NCBI GenBank assembly: GCA_963727505.1
Contig: CAVSGP010000004.1
Location: 672,001-736,000, forward strand
Length of the DNA: 64,000 bases
Reading direction: 5' to 3'
DNA from: an uncultured Trueperaceae bacterium
Lineage (GTDB): Bacteria > Deinococcota > Deinococci > Deinococcales > Trueperaceae
Both the position numbers and the translations under genes were made by a program. The number at the start of each line of letters is the position of its first letter. The first letter of the stretch is position 1. This document shows, in pieces, positions 36,381 through 44,288 of this stretch. A model generated the notes under the pieces. It made no database searches. It had not been told where the DNA came from and worked only from the letters and a program-made list of their open reading frames with translations.

Positions 36381-36552
36381 GGTGGCGGCCCGCCATTGTA
36401 CCCGCCGGCCGTTGGCGGCGCCGTCCTGTAGCGCGACCCTTGGTGTCCACGCACGGCTCGGCTCACAGCGCGACAACGGAGGGCCCACTTTGCCCGATTT
36501 CACGTCTGCTTAGCACGGCACGCCCTATGATGCACGCATCGGGCATTGCCCG

Positions 36553-36630
36553 ATCTTGGAACGCGATGAAACCCGTCTCCTAACGTGGGCGCTTGAGACG
36601 GGTGGAGCGAGTAGCGCAACCGGCCAAGGT
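36553..36630 (+). ncRNA. c-di-GMP-II riboswitch aptamer, copy 1
   Basis: GGAACGCGATGAA-stem(CCCGTCTC/GAGACGGG)-TGGGCGCTT loop-TGGAGCGAGTAGCGCAACCGGCC; GCGCT/AGCGC pseudoknot; P1 ATCTTGG/CCAAGGT; TATGAT at 36526. Confidence 0.85.
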
Positions 36631-36737
36631 GAGTCAATCCTCATCCTCAGCCGAACACGCGTCCACAACGGCTCCGCAAGGGGTCGTCGAGGGAGTATCC
36701 GGTCGTGCCACGAGTTCATGCTCGCGCACGCAAGCCG

Positions 36738-36822
36738 GGACCCCCCGGAAGCGATGAAGCCTGTCCTGCACTTGGGCGCTTGGGACAGGTGGAGCCAGTA
36801 GCGCAACCGGCCAGGCGGGTCC
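36738..36822 (+). ncRNA. c-di-GMP-II riboswitch aptamer, copy 2 (tandem with copy 1)
   Basis: GGAAGCGATGAAG-CCTGTCC/GGACAGG stem-TGGGCGCTT-TGGAGCCAGTAGCGCAACCGGCC; stem covaries relative to copies 1 and 3. Confidence 0.85.
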
Positions 36823-36891
36823 TTTGTGGTCCAACGCAGCACCGTCGGTCAGGCGCCCCGAATCGTTCGAGAGGCTTCGAGGCGAGGACCG

Positions 36892-37908
36892 ATGGTGGCC
36901 GACAGCGCGTCAGGCAAGAGCACCGCAGTCCTGCACAGGGTTCGCCGCAGGCGGATCGCCGGCTGGCTTCGCATCGTCTACCTGGCCCTGGCGGCGGCCG
37001 TCGTCCTGTCGGAAGCGGGCTGTTCGTCCGTTGGGACGGAGGTCCCGGCGAGCCTCACGAGCGCATCTGACGTTCCGCAGCCGATGTTCGGGGCCTACAC
37101 GGACGGCGGCGTCTGGCAGGGCATGGAGCCTGTCCGGCAACTCGAAACGTTGCTCGGACGCAAGCTCGATATCGTGCACTGGTTCATGAGTTGGGACACG
37201 CCCTACGACATCGCCCTCGTCGAAGCGGCCAGCGCCGACGGCCGACGTCCTCTCATCACCTGGGAGCCGAACCACCAGGCGGTCCAGGCCATCGCCGCGG
37301 GCACGTACGACGGGCTCATCCGAGATTTCGCAGACGGCGTGCGTGCCACGCCCGGGATCGTGTACGTTCGTCCGTTCCCCGAGATGAATGGGGATTGGGT
37401 GCCTTGGAACGGAGACCCCGCCGCCCTGGTGGCGGCCTGGCGCCACATGGTGACCGTGTTCCGGGCCGAGGGAGCGGACAACGTGCGGTGGGTCTGGAGC
37501 CCCAACGTGACGGACCAGCCCAACACACCTGCCAACGCCATGGAGCGCTACTACCCTGGCAGCTCTTACGTCGATGTGTTGGCACTGGACGGTTACAACT
37601 GGGGTACGACAACGAGCTGGAGCACGTGGCAGAGCTATACAGAGATCTTCGCGCAACCGTACGCGCGCATCACCGCACTGGGGCCGCAACCGGTGTGGAT
37701 CACGGAGATCGCCTCCGCCAGCCAGGGCGGAGACAAGGCCGCGTGGGTCGCGAACATGCTCAATACGTCGGCCTTCCCCCGCATTCAGGCCCTGGTCTGG
37801 TTCAACCAGAACAAGGAAGCGGATTGGCGGATCGACAACTCGGCCAACGTCATCCAGGCGGCTCGCGTCAATCTTGGCCCCGGAACCGCCACCCTTGCGA
37901 GCCGATGA
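36892..37908 (+). CDS. Glycoside hydrolase family 26 lipoprotein, paralog 1
   Basis: LITWEP, RPFPEMNGDW (acid/base Glu), YYPG..YVDVLALDGYNWG and WITE (nucleophile Glu); lipobox-like EAGC. Confidence 0.88.
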   Translation: MVADSASGKSTAVLHRVRRRRIAGWLRIVYLALAAAVVLSEAGCSSVGTEVPASLTSASDVPQPMFGAYTDGGVWQGMEPVRQLETLLGRKLDIVHWFMSWDTPYDIALVEAASADGRRPLITWEPNHQAVQAIAAGTYDGLIRDFADGVRATPGIVYVRPFPEMNGDWVPWNGDPAALVAAWRHMVTVFRAEGADNVRWVWSPNVTDQPNTPANAMERYYPGSSYVDVLALDGYNWGTTTSWSTWQSYTEIFAQPYARITALGPQPVWITEIASASQGGDKAAWVANMLNTSAFPRIQALVWFNQNKEADWRIDNSANVIQAARVNLGPGTATLASR

Positions 37909-38077
37909 GCCACGAGGCATGCTGACGTCGTCGAGCCAGGGCATCCTGTCAGAGAAGGTACCGGCTCCGCCCTTCCCCCGGGGACGCTGGATGAAGTCCG
38001 GATGAACCTCGCCGTTGGGAGATCTGTCACAATCTCACCGGGCACCGTCGTAGGATTCATGAGTCGGGCAAGGCCCG

Positions 38078-38155
38078 ACCTTGGAAGCGATGAAGCCCGT
38101 TTCCCAACGTGGGCGCTCGAGACGGGCGGAGCGAGCAGCGCAACCGTCCAGGCAG
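38078..38155 (+). ncRNA. c-di-GMP-II riboswitch aptamer, copy 3
   Basis: GGAAGCGATGAAG-CCCGTTTC/GAGACGGG-TGGGCGCTC-CGGAGCGAGCAGCGCAACCGTCC upstream of the second GH26 gene; TAGGAT at 38051. Confidence 0.83.
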
Positions 38156-38208
38156 ATTCGTAGCTGCCCATCGTCGGTCAGGCGCACCTAGTTCTTCGCG
38201 AGGCGACG

Positions 38209-39207
38209 ATGGCGATGGTGTCTCAGTCGAACGAGAGTGGTGAACGGCGTAGCCGCGCGAGCGGCCGGCGCTTCACGACGGCGATCGCGATCACGATCGC
38301 CGTGCTCGTGCTGGCAACCGGGTGTTCGAGCGTGGCCAGCCGACCGCCCCGAACCGTCGCCCGCCCATCGGATGTCCGGCCGATGTTCGGCGCCTTCACC
38401 TACGGTGGCGTGTGGCAGGGGATGGAGCCCGTTCGCCAGCTCGAAGATCTGCTCGGACGCAAGCTCGACGTGGTCCACTGGTACATGAGCTGGGACACGC
38501 CCTACGACGTCGCTCTCGTGAAGGCGGCCATCGCCGGCGGGCGCCTGCCCATGATCACCTGGCAACCCCACCACCAGACCGTCTCCGACATCGCTTCCGG
38601 AACCTACGACGGCACCCTCCGCAGTTTCGCCGACGGCGTGCGGGCCACGCCCGGCCTCGTCTACGTGCGCCCCTTCCCCGAGATGAACGGTGACTGGGAA
38701 CCCTGGAACGGACAGCCGGCTACCTTCGTGAGGGCGTGGCGCCACATGGTCGACGTCTTCCGAGCCGAAGGCGCCGACAACGTGCGGTGGGTCTGGTCGC
38801 CCAACGACACCGACCAGCCAAGTACCCCTGCCAACGCCATGGAGCGGTACTACCCCGGTAACGCCTACGTCGACATCCTTGCTCTGGACGGCTACAACTG
38901 GGGAACGAGCCGGAGCTGGAGCACATGGCGCAGCTTCAGCGACATCTTCGCCCAGCCCTACGCCCGCATCACCGCCCTCGGACCTCAGCCCGTGTGGATC
39001 GCCGAGGTCGCCTCGACCAGCAAGGGTGGCGACAAGGCCGCCTGGGTCGCCGGCATGCTCGACACCAAGCAGTTCCCCCGTATCCGAGCGCTGATCTGGT
39101 TCAACCACAACAACGACATGGACTGGCGCCTGGACAATTCGCTCGCCGTGGTCCAGTCCGCACGGGCGAACCTTGCGCCCAACCTCGACGCGGCCGCCAG
39201 CCGCTAA
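38209..39207 (+). CDS. Glycoside hydrolase family 26 lipoprotein, paralog 2
   Basis: Same GH26 motifs (RPFPEMNGDW, DGYNWG, WIAE); lipobox LATGC; closely similar to paralog 1. Confidence 0.88.
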   Translation: MAMVSQSNESGERRSRASGRRFTTAIAITIAVLVLATGCSSVASRPPRTVARPSDVRPMFGAFTYGGVWQGMEPVRQLEDLLGRKLDVVHWYMSWDTPYDVALVKAAIAGGRLPMITWQPHHQTVSDIASGTYDGTLRSFADGVRATPGLVYVRPFPEMNGDWEPWNGQPATFVRAWRHMVDVFRAEGADNVRWVWSPNDTDQPSTPANAMERYYPGNAYVDILALDGYNWGTSRSWSTWRSFSDIFAQPYARITALGPQPVWIAEVASTSKGGDKAAWVAGMLDTKQFPRIRALIWFNHNNDMDWRLDNSLAVVQSARANLAPNLDAAASR

Positions 39208-39249
39208 GCGTTCGCGCGCCCATCGAAGTCCATCGCGACTCGTCCACCG

Positions 39250-39385
39250 GACAGCTCGATCTCGACGCGGTGCTGACGGTCCTGAACCTACACCTCTCCC
39301 TCACCACCGACGTCAGCCCCGACGGCCGGCTCTACCTCACGACGCTCTACCTCACGACGGTGAATGGCACACTGGTTCGCCTCAG
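39250..39385 (+). pseudogene. Possible remnant of a beta-propeller (PQQ sugar dehydrogenase-like) C-terminus with an internal 15-bp duplication
   Basis: Reads ...TTDVSPDGRLYLTT(LYLTT)VNGTLVRL; no credible start. Confidence 0.35.
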
Positions 39386-42144
39386 CGCGCGCTGGCGCGC
39401 GCGCTCGACGCCACGGAGGCGCGCGAGCCCGAGAAGAGCCGTTGCAGCACCGCGCTGTACATCCCTGCGTCCTCGATCCCGTAGGAGGCCACGATCGCCT
39501 GGCTCCGCTGGTAGGCGGTGGCCAGGCCGAGCTTCCCGGCGGCGACGTCCGCGCTCTCCGCCACGAGCTGTCGTTCGGGTGCCGCCAGTGACGTCGGATC
39601 TACCCGATAGGCAGCGTACGCGCTGCCCAGGGCGTCGACGAGCGGCCCGAGGCGCAGCATGGCCTCGACCGGTCCCTGCAGGTTCCCCACGATCTGGTCC
39701 TTCCGGGTTACGCCGTGCACCGGGTTGATGTACAGGGCGTAGGCGAAGGCGTCGTCCTTGGCGGCCGGCTGCGCCAGCGCCCACGCCAGCTTCGCCGCAC
39801 CGGCGCAGACCGAGAAGTCGGGATCGAAGACGTTGAACGACCCGCTCAGGAGGTGCGGGTTGTACAGAGGCTTGTTCACGTCCTCGGAGACTGCACGCAG
39901 CAGCGTCAGCGCATCGGACGTCATCTGCGAGAGCCCCTTGTCGCCGGTCTGGCCGACGGCAAGCGGATTGAGATAGGACTCGTTGATGAGCACTTGAAGC
40001 AGAAGCCGCGCTGGCACCCCGTAAGCGGTGGACGCCTCTTCGATGTAGGGTTCGATCGGAGCCAGCCGACCCAGCATGAGCAGCTCGAAGTGGTTCAGGG
40101 GCCGGTAACCCTCGGCCGACCCGGGCAGGGTCTGCGGGGCCTCGCTGGGCTGTCGCAGATAGGCGGGCCGGCAGTAGTCCGAGAGTGCTGGCCGAGGTTC
40201 GTAAGACGGGGTAGCGGCGGCCGCCCCGTCGGCTCCCCCGCCGCCACCGCCGGCGGCGATCCGGGCGAAGGCCGCGGGCGCGGCCAGGGCGACCGCTCCC
40301 GTCACGGTAGCGTGAGCACGTGGAGCCTCCAGCCGGCGCGCGGAGCGCGACACGGGATCGAGCGGTAGCGCGATGGAAGCCTGGAACACGGGGATCGTCG
40401 CGCTCCCGGCCGGTTCCAGCAACAGCGCAGGGGCGACCTGCGCCGCATGCAAGGGCAACCACTCGTGCTGTGCCATGTCGAGGCGCGGCGTGTGCTCCAG
40501 CAGTCGCTGGGTGGCAAGCGGATCCGCTCCCGAGGCCGGCGCCAGCGCCAGGATGGCCACGAACACCGCCGTCAGGGACGTCAGCATGGTGGCGGCCGTA
40601 CCCAGCGTTCGTTTGTCGACGCCGCGCGCGGTGGGCCGCTCCCAGGCCACACCCTGGGTCCCCTTGACCGCCCTGCGGCTCGCTGCGCGACGCTCCCGGA
40701 AGAACGCGGGGACCACGCTGGAGGCCGCGGCGACGAAGCTGACGGGATTCGCCACCTTCAGAAGCATGTAGGGCAACCAGGTCTGGAGCGTCCTCCGGCC
40801 CGCGAACCGCAGGGCCGGAGCTCGCGCCCGGCGACCGTCGCGCGCCTGAGCGTAGAAGCCGGCGAAGGTCATGAGTCCCGTCGCGGCCAGGTCGATTCCG
40901 ACCCACAGAGCCAGGTTCCGCGCCAACGCGCTCGACCCCATCGCCCCCAACACGCCCAGCGCCAGCATCACCGGCACCAGAAGCAACAGCAGCAGCCCGA
41001 GAAGGTTCTCGAGCTGCGCCCCGAAGAGCGTGAAGCGCACGTTGGGAGTCATGGCGCGGTCGCCGGCCTCGCCCAGGACCCGCTTCAACGCGTTCTGGAT
41101 ACCGCCGCCGTGCCAGCGCTCGATCTGCCGCAGGTAGCCGCCGGCGTGGGCGGGATCCTCCGTGTACATCTGCGCGTCCCCCACGAAACGTGCGTTCCCT
41201 CCGCGACGGAGCTCGATCACGTCCTCGCGGTCGAAGGCCTGGTCGAAGGGGACCTCCTCCCCCTCCACGACGATCCTGAAGCCGCGCGCAGCGAGCGCGG
41301 CCGGCGACCAGCGCTCGACGGTGCGGGGCAACGCCTGCACGGCGAGGGTCAGGTCGTGATCCTCGGTGAGTGTGTCGGGCGACATCGGCAGCACGTCCCG
41401 GCGCACCGTGAAGCCGCACCCGACCACCGTGAACAGGCGGCTGGCCCCCCACAGGTCGCCGTCGCCCGGCGTGCGGACCTGCCCCCGCCGCAGCACCGAA
41501 GCGAAGGCGTACTCGGCCGAGCGGCCGGCCGCGATGAAGCGCTGCGCCCGCTGAGCCCCGGCGGGCACGAAGGACGTCACCGAACCGGACTGGAGGGCAT
41601 AGTCCTCCAGCACCGGCCTGCCGCTGTGCCAACGCAGCCGGTAGAAGTTCCGCCGCAGCGCGGCGATGAAGCCGCGGTCGAACACGGTGTCGCCGTCCAC
41701 CAGGAGCACGCGCTCGGCGGTCAACAGCGAGCTCGTCACCAGGTTGTTGACGGCCTCGGACTTGGCCGTGCGCTGCCGATAATCCAGCACCACCACGGCC
41801 ATCGCTTTCCCGGGATGGCGCCAGCGCTCGACGGTGGCAAGCAGCTGCGGCGCTGGTGCCCTGGCCAGACGCTCGAAGCCGAACTCCTCCAGGGTCGCCG
41901 TCACCACCGCGTGGGTACCGTCGCTCGAGCCGTTGACGCTGACCGCCAGCTCGTCCGGGAGGGAACTCTGCGTCAACAATGAGGCCAGCGCCCGTCGCGC
42001 TCCGGCCTCCTCGTTGTACATGGGTGAGACGACGGCCAGCCTGTCGGGCCCGCAGACGGGCAGACTGCGATCAGGGACCGTGCTGAGCGCCGCGTTGAGA
42101 AGGGTTGTGGGCATGGCGGACAGGCCGAAGAAGTTGGGCATCAC
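39382..42144 (-). CDS. Processive GT2 glycosyltransferase fused via TM helices to a C-terminal lytic transglycosylase (SLT/GH23-like) domain
   Basis: PMYNEE, KSEAVN, VDGDT, TED and QIERW (QxxRW), then TM helices, then IEEASTAYGVP..LL.VLINES..NPLAV..TGDKGLSQM. Confidence 0.85.
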   Translation of the reverse strand: MMPNFFGLSAMPTTLLNAALSTVPDRSLPVCGPDRLAVVSPMYNEEAGARRALASLLTQSSLPDELAVSVNGSSDGTHAVVTATLEEFGFERLARAPAPQLLATVERWRHPGKAMAVVVLDYRQRTAKSEAVNNLVTSSLLTAERVLLVDGDTVFDRGFIAALRRNFYRLRWHSGRPVLEDYALQSGSVTSFVPAGAQRAQRFIAAGRSAEYAFASVLRRGQVRTPGDGDLWGASRLFTVVGCGFTVRRDVLPMSPDTLTEDHDLTLAVQALPRTVERWSPAALAARGFRIVVEGEEVPFDQAFDREDVIELRRGGNARFVGDAQMYTEDPAHAGGYLRQIERWHGGGIQNALKRVLGEAGDRAMTPNVRFTLFGAQLENLLGLLLLLLVPVMLALGVLGAMGSSALARNLALWVGIDLAATGLMTFAGFYAQARDGRRARAPALRFAGRRTLQTWLPYMLLKVANPVSFVAAASSVVPAFFRERRAASRRAVKGTQGVAWERPTARGVDKRTLGTAATMLTSLTAVFVAILALAPASGADPLATQRLLEHTPRLDMAQHEWLPLHAAQVAPALLLEPAGSATIPVFQASIALPLDPVSRSARRLEAPRAHATVTGAVALAAPAAFARIAAGGGGGGADGAAAATPSYEPRPALSDYCRPAYLRQPSEAPQTLPGSAEGYRPLNHFELLMLGRLAPIEPYIEEASTAYGVPARLLLQVLINESYLNPLAVGQTGDKGLSQMTSDALTLLRAVSEDVNKPLYNPHLLSGSFNVFDPDFSVCAGAAKLAWALAQPAAKDDAFAYALYINPVHGVTRKDQIVGNLQGPVEAMLRLGPLVDALGSAYAAYRVDPTSLAAPERQLVAESADVAAGKLGLATAYQRSQAIVASYGIEDAGMYSAVLQRLFSGSRASVASSARASAR

Positions 42145-42349
42145 GAAGTCCTATCCGTCTTAGGGCTCTCGGTCGACAGCGGCGGGCGCTGCAAGCGGAC
42201 GAACGCGCGTTTCGCGCGCCCATCGAGCCGCAGCGGCCCAATCCGAATCATCTGGCTTCCTGTGTATCATCGCGTTCCCTGCCCTGTCGCCCAGCCGTCA
42301 CAGCCCTGTGGCCTGGGTGGTTTACGATCGTATGATTTGGGAGGTGCGG

Positions 42350-42973
42350 ATGGCACTTCATATCAGCGGTAAGCTCGTGGCCGTAGGCCTCGTCCTGGCC
42401 GCCCTGATCACCGCATTCAGCGCCCCCCGCAGCGTGCAGGACCCGGGCGTCGCCCTGGCCATCACCCCCACCGCTACCGTCCGCTCCACGCCGGCCTCGC
42501 CGGATGCCGCCCGGACCAGCTCGGTGGGACCCGTGGCCAACCCCGTGTTCACGCTGCGGGCCACAGGCTACAACTCGATGGTCGATCAGACCGACGCCAC
42601 ACCGTTCATCACCTCGACGGGACAGCGTACCCGTTTCGGGATCATCGCGGTGAGCCCCGACCTGTTGGGTCATGATCTGCCGTATGGCAGCCTGGTGCGG
42701 ATCCGCGACCTCGGGAACTACTACACCGGGCGCGGATACGGCAGCTACCAGAGCCTGCTCGACAGCCAGGGACTGTTCATCGTCGAGGACACCATGCACT
42801 ATCAGAAGCGCGACCAGATCGACATCTGGTTCAGCGACTACGCCAGCGCGGTGAACTGGGGCATGCGCAAGGTGCGCGTCGAGGTCATCCGTTACGGGCG
42901 CAACGGGCCCAAGCTCGAGCCCTCCCGCGCCAGCGACTTCAGCGGCACGCCCCGCCTGACGGCCTCCCGCTGA
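42350..42973 (+). CDS. 3D domain (MltA-like) cell-wall protein
   Basis: RATGYNS...QTD.TPFITSTG, IIAVSPD, LPYGSLV, VEDT and IDIWF..A..WG; signal peptide; GGAGG RBS. Confidence 0.88.
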   Translation: MALHISGKLVAVGLVLAALITAFSAPRSVQDPGVALAITPTATVRSTPASPDAARTSSVGPVANPVFTLRATGYNSMVDQTDATPFITSTGQRTRFGIIAVSPDLLGHDLPYGSLVRIRDLGNYYTGRGYGSYQSLLDSQGLFIVEDTMHYQKRDQIDIWFSDYASAVNWGMRKVRVEVIRYGRNGPKLEPSRASDFSGTPRLTASR

Positions 42974-43106
42974 CCCCTTCGGCCGGCCGCCCGCACGGCC
43001 GCCGGCCCCTCCCCCCTTCCCGACGTTCAAGGCCGAGCCTCGCGGGGGCTCCCGGCCCCGGCCCAGGGCGGCTCGGGAGGCTCTCGACCGCACGGTAGAC
43101 TGGCCC

Positions 43107-44288
43107 GTGCGCAGCCTCGTACCGTACCTGGCCTGGCGGCACGTTCGCCGGCGCGGGCTGCAGTCGGGCCTCACCGTGCTCGGCGTGGCGGTCGGCGTGA
43201 TGGTCCTGATCGTGGCGCTGTCGCTGACCAACGGCTTCGTAGACGAGCTGATCCGCAGCACGCTCAAGGCCACCCCGATGCTCACGCTCGAGAGCTACGT
43301 CTCCGGGCAGACCCTTGCGAACGACCCGAAGGTCGGGCGCGCGCTGGCGGAGCGCACCTCGGTCACCGCCGTCGCCCCCTTCCTCAGCACGCAAGCGCTC
43401 ATCGCCCGGCGTGCCAGTGCCAGCCTCGGCATCACCGCCCGCCAGGGCTACACCCAGATCGTCGGCATCGACCCCTCCCTGGAGACGAAGGTCCTGGACC
43501 TCCCGATCCTGAAGAAGCAGGCGACCGCCCTCGCGCAGAAGGACGGCATCGTGCTCGGCGCCTCCCTGGCGCAGCAACTCGGCGTGCTCACCGGCGACAA
43601 GGTCGTGCTACGCGACATCACGGGGCACACCGCCGAACTCACCGTGGCGGGCACCTTCCGGGTCGGTAACGAGCTCATCGACGGCGTCGCCTCCTACATG
43701 TCGCTGGCGAACCTCCAGCAGTACATGCACGTGGGCGACCAGATCAGCGGGTACCACCTGCGCCTGGCCGATCCCCAGGGCGCTGCCGGCGTCGGCGTGA
43801 CGCTCGGGGACGCCTTCGGACTGCGCCCGGTGTCGTGGGACAGCCTGTTCGCCAACCTCATCAGCCAGCTCCGGCTGCAGAAGGCGGTCATCGCGGTGGT
43901 GGTGTTCCTGATCGTGCTGGTCGCCGCCATGGGGATCGCCAACATCCTGGTGCTGACGGTCTCGGAGAAGACCGAAGAGATCGCCATCCTGCGCGCGCTG
44001 GGCGCGACCCGGCGCCAGATCCTGGCCGTCTTCACCGTCGAGGGTCTGCTGCTCGGAGCCACCGGCACCCTGCTCGGCGCCCTGCTGGGGCTGGGCGTGA
44101 GCGCCTACTTCCGCCTGCAGCCCTACCCCCTGCCCGGCAACCTCTACTTCATCACCCAGCTCCCCGTGCGCCTGCAGGCCACCGACGTGCTGTGGGTCTG
44201 CGGTCTTGCCATCGGAACCAGCGTCCTGGCGGGGCTCTTCCCGGCGAGGCGGGCAGCCGACCTCGACCCCGTCGACGTGCTCCGTTGA
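43107..44288 (+). CDS. LolC/E-type (FtsX/MacB family) ABC permease
   Basis: LGVAVGVMVLIVALSLTNGF, EKTEEIAILRALGA, YFITQLP and FPARRAADLDPVDVLR. Confidence 0.88.
   Translation: MRSLVPYLAWRHVRRRGLQSGLTVLGVAVGVMVLIVALSLTNGFVDELIRSTLKATPMLTLESYVSGQTLANDPKVGRALAERTSVTAVAPFLSTQALIARRASASLGITARQGYTQIVGIDPSLETKVLDLPILKKQATALAQKDGIVLGASLAQQLGVLTGDKVVLRDITGHTAELTVAGTFRVGNELIDGVASYMSLANLQQYMHVGDQISGYHLRLADPQGAAGVGVTLGDAFGLRPVSWDSLFANLISQLRLQKAVIAVVVFLIVLVAAMGIANILVLTVSEKTEEIAILRALGATRRQILAVFTVEGLLLGATGTLLGALLGLGVSAYFRLQPYPLPGNLYFITQLPVRLQATDVLWVCGLAIGTSVLAGLFPARRAADLDPVDVLR

Follow-up and report, generated by a model that had tools for sequence, protein, structure and literature searches.

A family 2 glycosyltransferase fused to a lytic transglycosylase domain in Trueperaceae, beside glycanase genes with c-di-GMP riboswitches

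Introduction

How polysaccharides that are made by a synthase cross the peptidoglycan is largely unaddressed. The clearest published case that we found is in Streptomyces: local remodeling of the cell wall is proposed to let the glycan pass, by the lytic polysaccharide monooxygenase (LPMO) LpmP together with the glucanase CslZ (PMC9040799). This system (CslA-GlxA-CslZ-LpmP) brings together a family 2 glycosyltransferase (GT2) synthase, a glucanase, an oxidizing enzyme, and a peptidoglycan-active enzyme (PMC9040799, PMC11022532). Here, we describe a gene that encodes a putative GT2 synthase and a lytic transglycosylase (LT) domain, of the SLT or GH23 type, in one protein. This gene lies in a 64,000-nucleotide stretch of the genome of an uncultured Trueperaceae bacterium (assembly GCA_963727505.1, contig CAVSGP010000004.1, positions 672,001 to 736,000; hereafter, the window). 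Next to it are two genes for GH26 glycanases, which are preceded by riboswitches of the cyclic di-GMP (c-di-GMP) type.

Other described systems resemble parts of this locus. A covalent link between a GT2 synthase and a glycan-cleaving domain occurs in tunicates, whose cellulose synthase is fused to a GH6-like domain. PcManGT from the archaeon Pyrobaculum calidifontis is said to be a "minimal cellulose-synthase-like fold" enzyme of N-glycan synthesis. Hyaluronan synthases (HAS) and chitin synthases carry a tryptophan-containing cytoplasmic loop after their interface helices. In rhizobia, a beta-1,3/1,4 glucan is made by BgsA, a GT2 system under the control of c-di-GMP (PMC5567048). In our literature searches, we did not find a fusion of GT2 with SLT/GH23 described; an earlier reading of this DNA, made from its letters and open reading frames (the sequence-only reading), had not recognized it either.

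One reading frame for a synthase and a lytic transglycosylase

The first codon of the fusion gene (Table 1) is GTG and the second is ATG (42139-42141). Because the copy of the protein in the database is 919 amino acids long and 100% identical, the ATG at 42141 is the likely start. The G+C content at third codon positions is 0.88, as in other credible genes of the window, which is about 71% G+C overall. The genome contains one copy of the fusion gene.

All of the motifs that the sequence-only reading had placed in this single frame are present: VDGD at residues 149-152, TED at 260-262, QIERW at 340-344, ES at 722-723, GLSQM at 737-741, and ALYINP at 803-808. The architecture that it had described also holds up: GT2 motifs of the processive type are followed by membrane helices and a linker of low complexity, and the SLT domain has the lysozyme fold and retains the catalytic glutamate. 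The earlier reading named neither the strand (minus) nor the neighboring genes.

Pfam supports the pairing, as models for both halves exceed their curated cut-offs in the fusion protein. In the GT2 half, PF00535 (Glycos_transf_2) scored 27.4 bits (cut-off 23.3) and PF13641 scored 28.0 bits (cut-off 27), while PF13632 fell below its cut-off (21.1 versus 27 bits). In the C-terminal half, the SLT model PF01464 scored 32.9 bits (cut-off 21.3; 37 bits in a scan of the organism's own genome) and matched residues 700-795 with positions 2-85 of its 117. PilZ was not among the Pfam matches at E <= 1, and the C-terminus is the SLT domain. More specific models did not recognize the protein. A scan against NCBIfam gave no model near its cut-off, and PgaC_IcaA (the equivalog TIGR03937) scored just 13.9 bits against a cut-off of 422.3. 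A search of the Protein Atlas with the whole protein gave generic GT2 clusters at scores of 0.83-0.84, which is under the useful range, and no cluster that bears the fusion. The labels of the family in databases are similarly generic: "cellulose synthase/PNAG synthase-like glycosyltransferase" or "transglycosylase SLT domain-containing protein."

Conservation and distribution of the fusion

A word-indexed search over 5.8 billion proteins scored 8000 candidates, of which 149 matched at E <= 1e-3. The 120 homologs that were listed have 806-1265 amino acids and are 38-100% identical to the fusion protein. A precomputed SLT match was available for 106 of the 120; among the 14 without one, several nevertheless align over 98-99% of the query. 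We aligned 54 full-length homologs (40-88% identical) to examine conservation. In the GT2 half, D75, D150-G-D152, T260-E-D-H263, and Q340/R343/W344 are invariant; in the LT half, E722-S723, G737/Q740, and A801-Y-A803/I806-N-P808 are.

We also scanned for the gene in one genome per species, using a pattern, and obtained 79 loci. Those numbered L002-L070 are full copies or copies truncated by contig ends, L071 is a short fragment, and L072-L080 match only a nucleotide-binding stretch of 50-80 residues. By their record titles, the named taxa are mostly Trueperaceae, Truepera, Deinococcales, or Deinococcota. Two copies are on contigs that are labeled as Gemmatimonas sp. (L020) or Hyphomicrobiales (L054). 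L020 has the full synteny of the Trueperaceae type and L054 is a 4-kb contig; both are probably misbinned contigs rather than gene transfers.

In a scan of 364 genomes from the phylum, the fusion gene was matched in 76 of 127 genomes that belong, besides the organism's own, to the same family as the window (Trueperaceae, judging from record titles). The other families of Deinococcota had 0/125, 0/19, 1/23, 1/68, and 0/1 genomes with a match, and none of these was full length: the two matches are partial (50 and 107 residues; E of about 1e-6). One way for the sequence-only reading to fail was that the orthologs would be split into two genes. This is not what we found, as the halves lie in different frames in just two of the 77 matched genomes of the family (G245 and G291). 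Elsewhere, both halves are in one open frame or are cut by the ends of contigs.

A divergent putative synthase with a minimal fold

The GT2 half has a minimal cellulose-synthase-like fold and carries the motif set of processive beta-glycan synthases. A full-length AlphaFold2 (AF2) model, built from a 54-row alignment, has a mean predicted local distance difference test (pLDDT) score of 85.8, and the GT-A domain is above 90. When the GT2 and membrane part was compared to known structures with VIA, the best match was PcManGT (6yv7; Z 25.3, rmsd 3.5, 325 of 346 residues aligned, 19% identity). Chlorella virus HAS (8snc) followed with a Z of 22.4 and 400 residues aligned, and Escherichia coli BcsA (9fnn) had a Z of 22.1 with 364 residues aligned (7-538 of the model versus 243-659 of BcsA). 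Together, these matches span residues 5 to about 540 of the model. The top matches from Foldseek were Chlorella virus hyaluronan synthase, yeast Chs1, and BcsA (E from 7e-10 to 3e-8).

By sequence, the GT2 half is isolated. HMMER found just 77 matches at E <= 1e-3 among 1.84 billion representatives, and beyond the fusion family these were a handful of unfused kin of 476-517 amino acids that are 25-30% identical. Names are known for only two clusters of these kin, one of which is labeled Paceibacterota/Patescibacteria. In the nine unfused kin that we aligned, the motifs are retained (D-x-D, T-E/D-D, Q-x-x-R-W), as is D75. Similarly, a search of the PDB with the full-length family profile gave only short and weak matches: the best (E = 3.7e-4) was to a nucleotide-binding stretch, MltC had E = 0.004, and no BcsA chain matched at E <= 1.

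Scanning metagenomes for unfused kin, with an alignment of four sequences, gave three full-length loci (L084, L085, and L086), which are on short contigs; the other 49 match only part of the N-terminal GT2 domain. The three encode proteins of 488-498 amino acids, and in all of them (3/3) a gene for a signal-anchored protein is directly downstream. Only one of the three downstream ORFs, in L085, is long enough to test, and it contains a DUF2334/Polysacc_deac_1 (CE4-like) domain. A sigma-54 response regulator is upstream of the unfused kin in L084.

Membrane region and tether

The AF2 model has long helices at residues 334-357, 367-398, 404-436, 441-463, 465-489, and 511-534. By hydropathy, 372-399 and 513-537 are strongly hydrophobic and 408-430 and 456-480 are weaker. 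We predict that the membrane region has transmembrane (TM) helices at 367-398 and 404-436, amphipathic interface helices at 441-489, then a cytoplasmic loop with W501-E-R503-P, and finally a third TM helix at 511-534. There are no N-terminal TM helices. The fusion would have three membrane-spanning helices, and the unfused kin would have two.

Three concordant lines place the LT domain outside of the cytoplasm, and the alternative that the sequence-only reading had named, a cytoplasmic SLT domain, seems not to apply. First, the nine unfused kin end a few residues after the invariant W-x-R(-P). Because they stop after this loop, the fusion looks like a whole protein of the unfused type to which one TM helix, a tether, and an LT domain have been added, and since the extra helix follows what is the cytoplasmic C-terminus of the unfused kin, it would carry the LT domain into the periplasm. 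Second, the charges of the loops agree with the positive-inside rule: across the 54 sequences, the median net charge of the cytoplasmic loops is +4 (residues 437-464) and +7 (482-512), versus 0 (399-403) and -1 (535-566) for those that are predicted to be outside. Third, VIA aligns residues 6-537 of the model to residues 110-544 of the Rhodobacter sphaeroides BcsA chain, where the alignment ends. We take residue 544 to be the end of TM7 of BcsA, which runs from the cytoplasm to the periplasm.

The third TM helix is followed by a disordered tether. Across the 54 homologs, its length, measured from P564 to C658, ranges from 10 to 445 amino acids, with a median of 54.

The lytic transglycosylase domain

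In the full-length model, the C-terminal domain is helical and predicted with confidence. Modeled alone, the LT domain reaches a pLDDT of 93, and the top 10 matches from Foldseek are all LTs. In a wide search with VIA, the best matches were MltF (Z 12.6, rmsd 2.5, 141 residues aligned), Slt (12.2), MltC (11.8), MltE (11.4), and Slt70 (10.8); lower matches included the GH23 chitinase 3w6b (Z 9.0), a GH124 cellulase (Z 8.7), and EtgA (Z 7.4 and 5.4). Thus, the domain does have the lysozyme-type fold that the sequence-only reading had expected.

That reading had also described the catalytic ES and the GLSQM motif as intact and the third motif as altered, and both descriptions are borne out. E722, S723, G737, and Q740 are invariant in the 54 homologs and in 48 C-terminal domains. 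In the family profile, the NES...GLSQ segment aligns to the catalytic stretch of MltC (the variant chain 4cfo has Q at the catalytic Glu). Motif III of canonical LTs is A-Y-N-x-G. In this family it is AYA(L/R)YINPxxG, in which A801-Y-A803...I806-N-P808...G811 are invariant. The Pfam alignment ends before this region.

The domain has two additions, an N-terminal segment with a conserved Cys and a conserved helical C-terminal extension (residues 845-905). C658 and C780 of the periplasmic part are invariant (in the 54 and the 48 sequences), which fits with a disulfide bond. A search for stand-alone relatives of the SLT half gave 24 matches in shorter proteins, all of which are apparently fragments or split copies of the same family. 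The genome also contains a second, canonical SLT gene, in a 701-amino-acid frame, so the fused LT seems to be an extra and dedicated domain.

GH26 glycanase genes behind predicted riboswitches

Two GH26 genes (GH26a and GH26b) lie on the other side of a short gap from the fusion gene. The encoded proteins score 43.1 and 38.4 bits against the GH26 model of Pfam (cut-off 20.2). A family profile of 38 members matched the GH26 domain of Clostridium thermocellum Endoglucanase H (2bv9) with E = 7e-70 over 258 positions, which is the whole domain; the next GH26 structure had E = 2.5e-12. We take this domain to be that of CtLic26A, a beta-1,3-1,4-glucanase. E158 and E266 are invariant in the 38 sequences and, by comparison with clan GH-A, are presumably the acid/base and the nucleophile.

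Of 69 loci, 55 have a GH26 gene beside the fusion gene, and the two remain neighbors even where nothing else of the synteny is left. Of the 14 loci without one, nine end within about 700 bases of the fusion gene. Among the 128 genomes of the family, 74 have both genes, 3 have only the fusion (G254, G273, and G343), 1 has only GH26 (G260), and 50 have neither. In seven loci of a lower-GC subclade (L010, L011, L013, L014, L021, L022, and L062), a co-directional gene of 505-550 amino acids, with repeats of the Chlamydia PMP type (parallel beta-helix), is directly downstream of the fusion gene. Because five of these seven loci have no GH26, the PMP-repeat protein may be an alternative glycan-processing partner.

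The GH26 genes are preceded by aptamers of the c-di-GMP-II type: a tandem pair for GH26a and a single aptamer of the GAG variant for GH26b. Against the standard model (RF01786), the variant scored 51.2 bits, which is below the cut-off. The same arrangement of aptamers was found in all 11 of the GH26-bearing related loci that were tested (8/8 at first and 3/3 later) and in none of the five GH26-less loci that were tested. Rfam at a permissive threshold gave no riboswitch in the region upstream of the synthase (42050-42450), just one match at the level of chance, and a scan of 36400-43200 for promoters and terminators gave no sites of either kind.

Genome-wide, there are 10 matches to c-di-GMP-II aptamers, of which eight are above the gathering score. 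Other genes downstream of aptamers encode a right-handed beta-helix (Pel9A-like) protein that also contains an Ig domain, a GH99-like protein that contains a PKD domain, and a protein with weak similarity to Ig domains. Among the loci of the genome with aptamer matches are L136 (on C15), L137/L142 (C9), L140/L143 (C2), L141 (C4), and L145 (C5). The GH26 glycanases thus look like part of a regulon in which c-di-GMP governs secreted proteins that act on carbohydrates, and this suggests a role in the matrix more than in nutrition. Literature searches for c-di-GMP-II riboswitches in Deinococcus gave general papers only.

A gene for a glucose/sorbosone dehydrogenase that depends on pyrroloquinoline quinone (PQQ), GSDH, separates the fusion gene from GH26 in 43 of the 79 loci. 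It is missing from the cluster in the window, where 174 bases separate the convergent genes (39207-39382), and it is truncated in an 88% identical relative (L002:11108-11974). One GSDH gene is present elsewhere in the genome, about 110 kb away on the same contig (C4:599638-600621).

Upstream neighbors

A gene for a membrane-anchored protein is divergent from the fusion gene. Its family profile had just three matches in the PDB, all of them YuiC (E = 0.065-0.076). In the Protein Atlas, a neighboring cluster scores 0.94, and 21% of the members of that cluster have the 3D domain (PF06725); the nearest clusters are from Deinococcota and Minisyncoccota. This protein is probably a membrane-anchored wall enzyme with a 3D (MltA/YuiC-like) domain that Pfam misses. 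It is present in 41 loci and is not kept beside the fusion gene where the general synteny breaks, so its link to the module is weaker. Two genes upstream of the fusion gene is a gene for a MacB-type permease (MacB_PCD plus FtsX; 43107-44288, plus strand), which is syntenic in 39 loci. A rhizobial system for mixed-linkage glucan is reported to require TolC (PMC13438883), and a link of this kind may or may not exist here. Among the genes of the window and of the related loci, Pfam found no CE4 gene in the Trueperaceae cluster.

Table 1. Positions of the fusion gene, its parts, and neighboring features in the window
Feature	Positions	Strand	Evidence and remarks
c-di-GMP-II aptamer 1 (tandem pair), upstream of GH26a	36550..36633	+	RF01786, 64.1 bits (cut-off 53.5)
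c-di-GMP-II aptamer 2 (tandem pair), upstream of GH26a	36738..36821	+	RF01786, 71.4 bits (cut-off 53.5)
GH26a, paralog of GH26b (68% identical)	36826..37908	+	Pfam GH26; lipobox; likely ATG at 36892
c-di-GMP-II-GAG variant aptamer, upstream of GH26b	38074..38157	+	RF03169, 44.7 bits (cut-off 40)
GH26b, Lic26A-type GH26 lipoprotein gene, convergent with the fusion gene	38209..39207	+	Pfam GH26; lipobox LATGC
GT2-SLT fusion gene	39382..42144	-	920 codons plus stop; Pfam GT2 and SLT matches
Periplasmic (predicted) LT domain (SLT/GH23), residues 650-905	39430..40197	-	Pfam, profile, and fold; catalytic E722 at 39979-39981
Ala/Gly/Pro/Ser-rich disordered tether, residues 568-649	40198..40443	-	pLDDT below 50
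Membrane region, residues 367-534	40543..41046	-	Hydropathy, AF2 helices, loop charges, ends of unfused kin
GT-A (GT2) catalytic domain, predicted cytoplasmic, residues ~28-360	41065..42063	-	D75, D150-G-D152, T260-E-D262, Q340-x-x-R-W344
Divergent membrane-anchored protein	42308..42973	+	No Pfam match; YuiC profile matches; likely ATG at 42350

Proposed role and alternatives

Our preferred reading, in which we place about even confidence, is that the fusion is a bifunctional inner-membrane protein at the center of an accessory module of Trueperaceae, linked to c-di-GMP, for an envelope glycan, and that its tethered LT domain opens the peptidoglycan for the nascent polymer. The GT2 part would use a nucleotide sugar to polymerize a beta-linked glycan at the membrane's inner face and would pass the chain outward. 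The neighboring enzymes suggest that this polymer may be a beta-1,3/1,4-linked glucan. On its tether, the LT would nick peptidoglycan strands just above its own synthase, and the chain would then cross the wall or be laid into it. The riboswitch-controlled GH26 lipoproteins would trim or release the polymer, and in most relatives the PQQ sugar dehydrogenase would take part too. The sequence-only reading had offered three roles for the LT domain: cutting the wall to let the polymer out, transferring the glycan to the wall, or processing the enzyme's own product. The context (Lic26A-type glucanases behind c-di-GMP riboswitches, and a CE4-like gene beside unfused kin) leans towards cutting of the wall and keeps the processing of the enzyme's own product alive.

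Several observations weigh against the wall-opening proposal. First, five of the 14 loci without GH26 have room downstream and carry the PMP-repeat beta-helix gene instead. The counts of co-occurrence also overstate the link, because a missing contig takes neighboring genes away at the same time and because related genomes are not independent. Moreover, the GH26 genes and the fusion gene converge, so they are not cotranscribed. Second, three spanning helices are too few for a channel of the BcsA or HAS type in a monomer, and the best single match by fold is a small archaeal enzyme, PcManGT. This helix count is the weakest point of any proposal in which the synthase translocates its own product. 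Third, the tether has just 10-40 amino acids in some homologs, which would hold the LT near the membrane. Fourth, there are hints that the product contains N-acetylglucosamine (GlcNAc), on which the LT could then act: the CE4-like gene downstream of unfused kin, the ranks of HAS and chitin synthase in Foldseek, the noncanonical motif III of the LT, the SLT match that ends at position 85 of 117, and the LT-like fold of a chitinase from GH23 (Z 9.0) and of a cellulase from GH124 (Z 8.7). Fifth, no outer-membrane export component was identified near the fusion gene.

Some of the same observations would be expected if the LT instead cleaves the synthase's own product, the main alternative, which we consider doubtful but worth keeping in view. 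The product would be a GlcNAc-containing beta-glycan that is like chitin, poly-N-acetylglucosamine (PNAG), or hyaluronan, or perhaps a heteropolymer with glucose, and it would be cut at the exit of the channel. The lytic mechanism would depend on the 2-acetamido group, set the length of the chain, and release 1,6-anhydro ends. In favor of such a product, a gene for a secreted, deacetylase-like protein is directly downstream of the synthase in the three unfused-kin loci (3/3, with the CE4-like domain seen in the one ORF that is long enough to test), as in PgaC-PgaB or IcaA-IcaB, and hyaluronan and chitin synthases head the Foldseek list. We take the invariant W501-x-R503 loop to resemble the W-containing gating-loop motif of these two kinds of synthases. 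The alteration of motif III and tethers as short as 10-40 amino acids point the same way, and the search of shorter proteins found no stand-alone SLT relatives outside the fusion family. Also, the 3w6b chitinase, the GH124 cellulase, and MltE with chitopentaose show that the fold can take chains other than peptidoglycan. However, the glycanases that co-occur so tightly with the fusion are Lic26A-type GH26 enzymes (E = 7e-70), and we know of no GH26 that acts on GlcNAc polymers. Furthermore, the CE4 gene is not in the Trueperaceae cluster, the unfused kin are just 25-30% identical and may differ in sugar specificity, and motifs I and II of the peptidoglycan LTs are strictly retained. A bolder version, which strikes us as unlikely, is that the GH23 domain has no function in the wall and has been co-opted as chain-terminating scissors for its own synthase. 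It would cut the nascent GlcNAc-containing glycan lytically, without hydrolysis, which would leave 1,6-anhydro ends on the secreted matrix polymer, with the length of the product set by the geometry of the tether. If true, this would be the first LT with a physiological substrate other than peptidoglycan and a new kind of control over polysaccharide length.

It is improbable that the GT2 half, rather than being a polymerase that exports its own product, is a minimal transferase like PcManGT. Such an enzyme would extend an acceptor, either lipid-linked or bound to the wall, by a single sugar or a few, with the LT coupling glycosylation to the remodeling of peptidoglycan. The match to PcManGT (Z 25.3, 325/346 residues), the lack of N-terminal TM helices, the small number of TM helices (two in the unfused kin and three in the fusion), and the isolation of the GT2 half in sequence (77 matches among 1.84 billion representatives) are consistent with this idea. 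On the other hand, TED and QxxRW are invariant, and the alignment with HAS and BcsA (Z 22) extends over some 400 residues and takes in the membrane part. The co-occurring operon of dedicated endo-glycanases also argues for a polymer.

Less probable still, to the point that we give it little weight, is that the LT, in place of making a 1,6-anhydro end, transfers the cleaved muramyl end onto the nascent glycan and so grafts it to peptidoglycan, or that it merely binds the wall to position the synthase. The geometry of the tether would bring the nascent chain and the wall-active site together, and the helical extension (845-905) could hold a second glycan, but to our knowledge no LT performs intermolecular transfer in vivo, and the invariant catalytic Glu speaks against a role in binding alone.

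As to whether the fusion exists, the sequence-only reading had asked for a check against sequencing reads. Contigs from four public DNA runs show no joints and no indels; they are short and none spans the gene. Logan contigs of two of the runs (X1 and X2) cover 30 of 30 bins of the stretch, likewise with no joints or indels and none that spans the gene. This check adds little because the runs may include the source sample. Among 10 runs that were listed, none with this sequence was an RNA run. Nevertheless, an artifact of assembly or gene calling, or a decaying pseudogene, is refuted for practical purposes by conservation and has a negligible chance of being correct: although the halves are in different frames in a few relatives (G245, G291, and L013) and the public contigs are short, dozens of species, assembled independently and 38-88% identical in this protein, have a single fused frame, with the catalytic residues invariant in both halves.

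Comparison with known systems

The GT2 half shares with BcsA the GT-A fold, the interface and TM helices, and the D, DxD, TED, and QxxRW motifs, and the two systems share an accessory periplasmic endoglucanase (BcsZ) and a link to c-di-GMP. In contrast to BcsA, no PilZ domain was detected in the fusion, and it has no N-terminal TM helices and no TM8; BcsB and BcsC were not seen nearby. Here, c-di-GMP would be sensed by riboswitches on the glycanase genes. HAS (from Chlorella virus and Xenopus) and chitin synthases are similar in fold (Foldseek E from 7e-10 to 1e-8; VIA Z of 20-22 over about 400 residues), but they are just 11-16% identical, have more TM helices, and lack a periplasmic or extracellular enzyme domain. 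PcManGT has a comparably small membrane part but is archaeal and has no LT domain.

The LT domain resembles the family-1 LTs MltC, MltE, MltF, and Slt70 in its fold (Z 10.8-12.6), its catalytic Glu-Ser, and its G-L-x-Q motif. It differs in that motif III is altered and in that it is anchored by a synthase, not by a lipobox or a signal peptide. LTs of the EtgA type are alike in another way, as a dedicated LT clears a path through the peptidoglycan for one apparatus.

For the unfused kin, the order of the genes, a synthase and then a deacetylase, is like that of PgaC-PgaB and IcaA-IcaB. Unlike PgaC or IcaA, the fusion is far below the cut-off of TIGR03937, and the deacetylase is not part of the Trueperaceae cluster. 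The beta-1,3/1,4 glucan made by BgsA (PMC5567048) belongs to the class of substrates of Lic26A-type enzymes. BgsA binds c-di-GMP itself, resembles cellulose synthases, and has no LT domain. The tunicate fusion is eukaryotic, and its cellulase-family domain would act on the product, not on the wall.

The locus bears on several questions. If the wall-opening proposal is correct, a fusion of a synthase to a wall cutter that is found family-wide would be genetic evidence that the wall is a barrier to such polymers in the thick-walled, diderm Deinococcota, and it would offer a compact, single-polypeptide system for testing this idea. The small and uncharacterized GT2 clade, with its minimal membrane part, raises the question of how few helices suffice for translocating a glycan. 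The module also ties c-di-GMP-II riboswitches to putative matrix glycanases in a phylum whose biofilm biology is little studied.

The system that is closest in its roles is CslA-GlxA-CslZ-LpmP of Streptomyces. Its roles (PMC9040799, PMC11022532) map to the GT2 half, GSDH (in most relatives), GH26, and the SLT domain, respectively. The enzyme families differ, as GH26 takes the place of GH6, a PQQ dehydrogenase that of a copper radical oxidase, and an LT that of an LPMO. Furthermore, the wall-active part is covalently fused here, the host belongs to the Deinococcota, and the glycanases are controlled by riboswitches; the two systems are likened by roles, not by sequence. Each component is of a known kind, and the opening of the wall for glycan export has one published precedent. 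What is new is the covalent fusion, the very divergent clade of minimal GT2 synthases, the setting in Deinococcota, and the partnership with glycanases under predicted riboswitch control.

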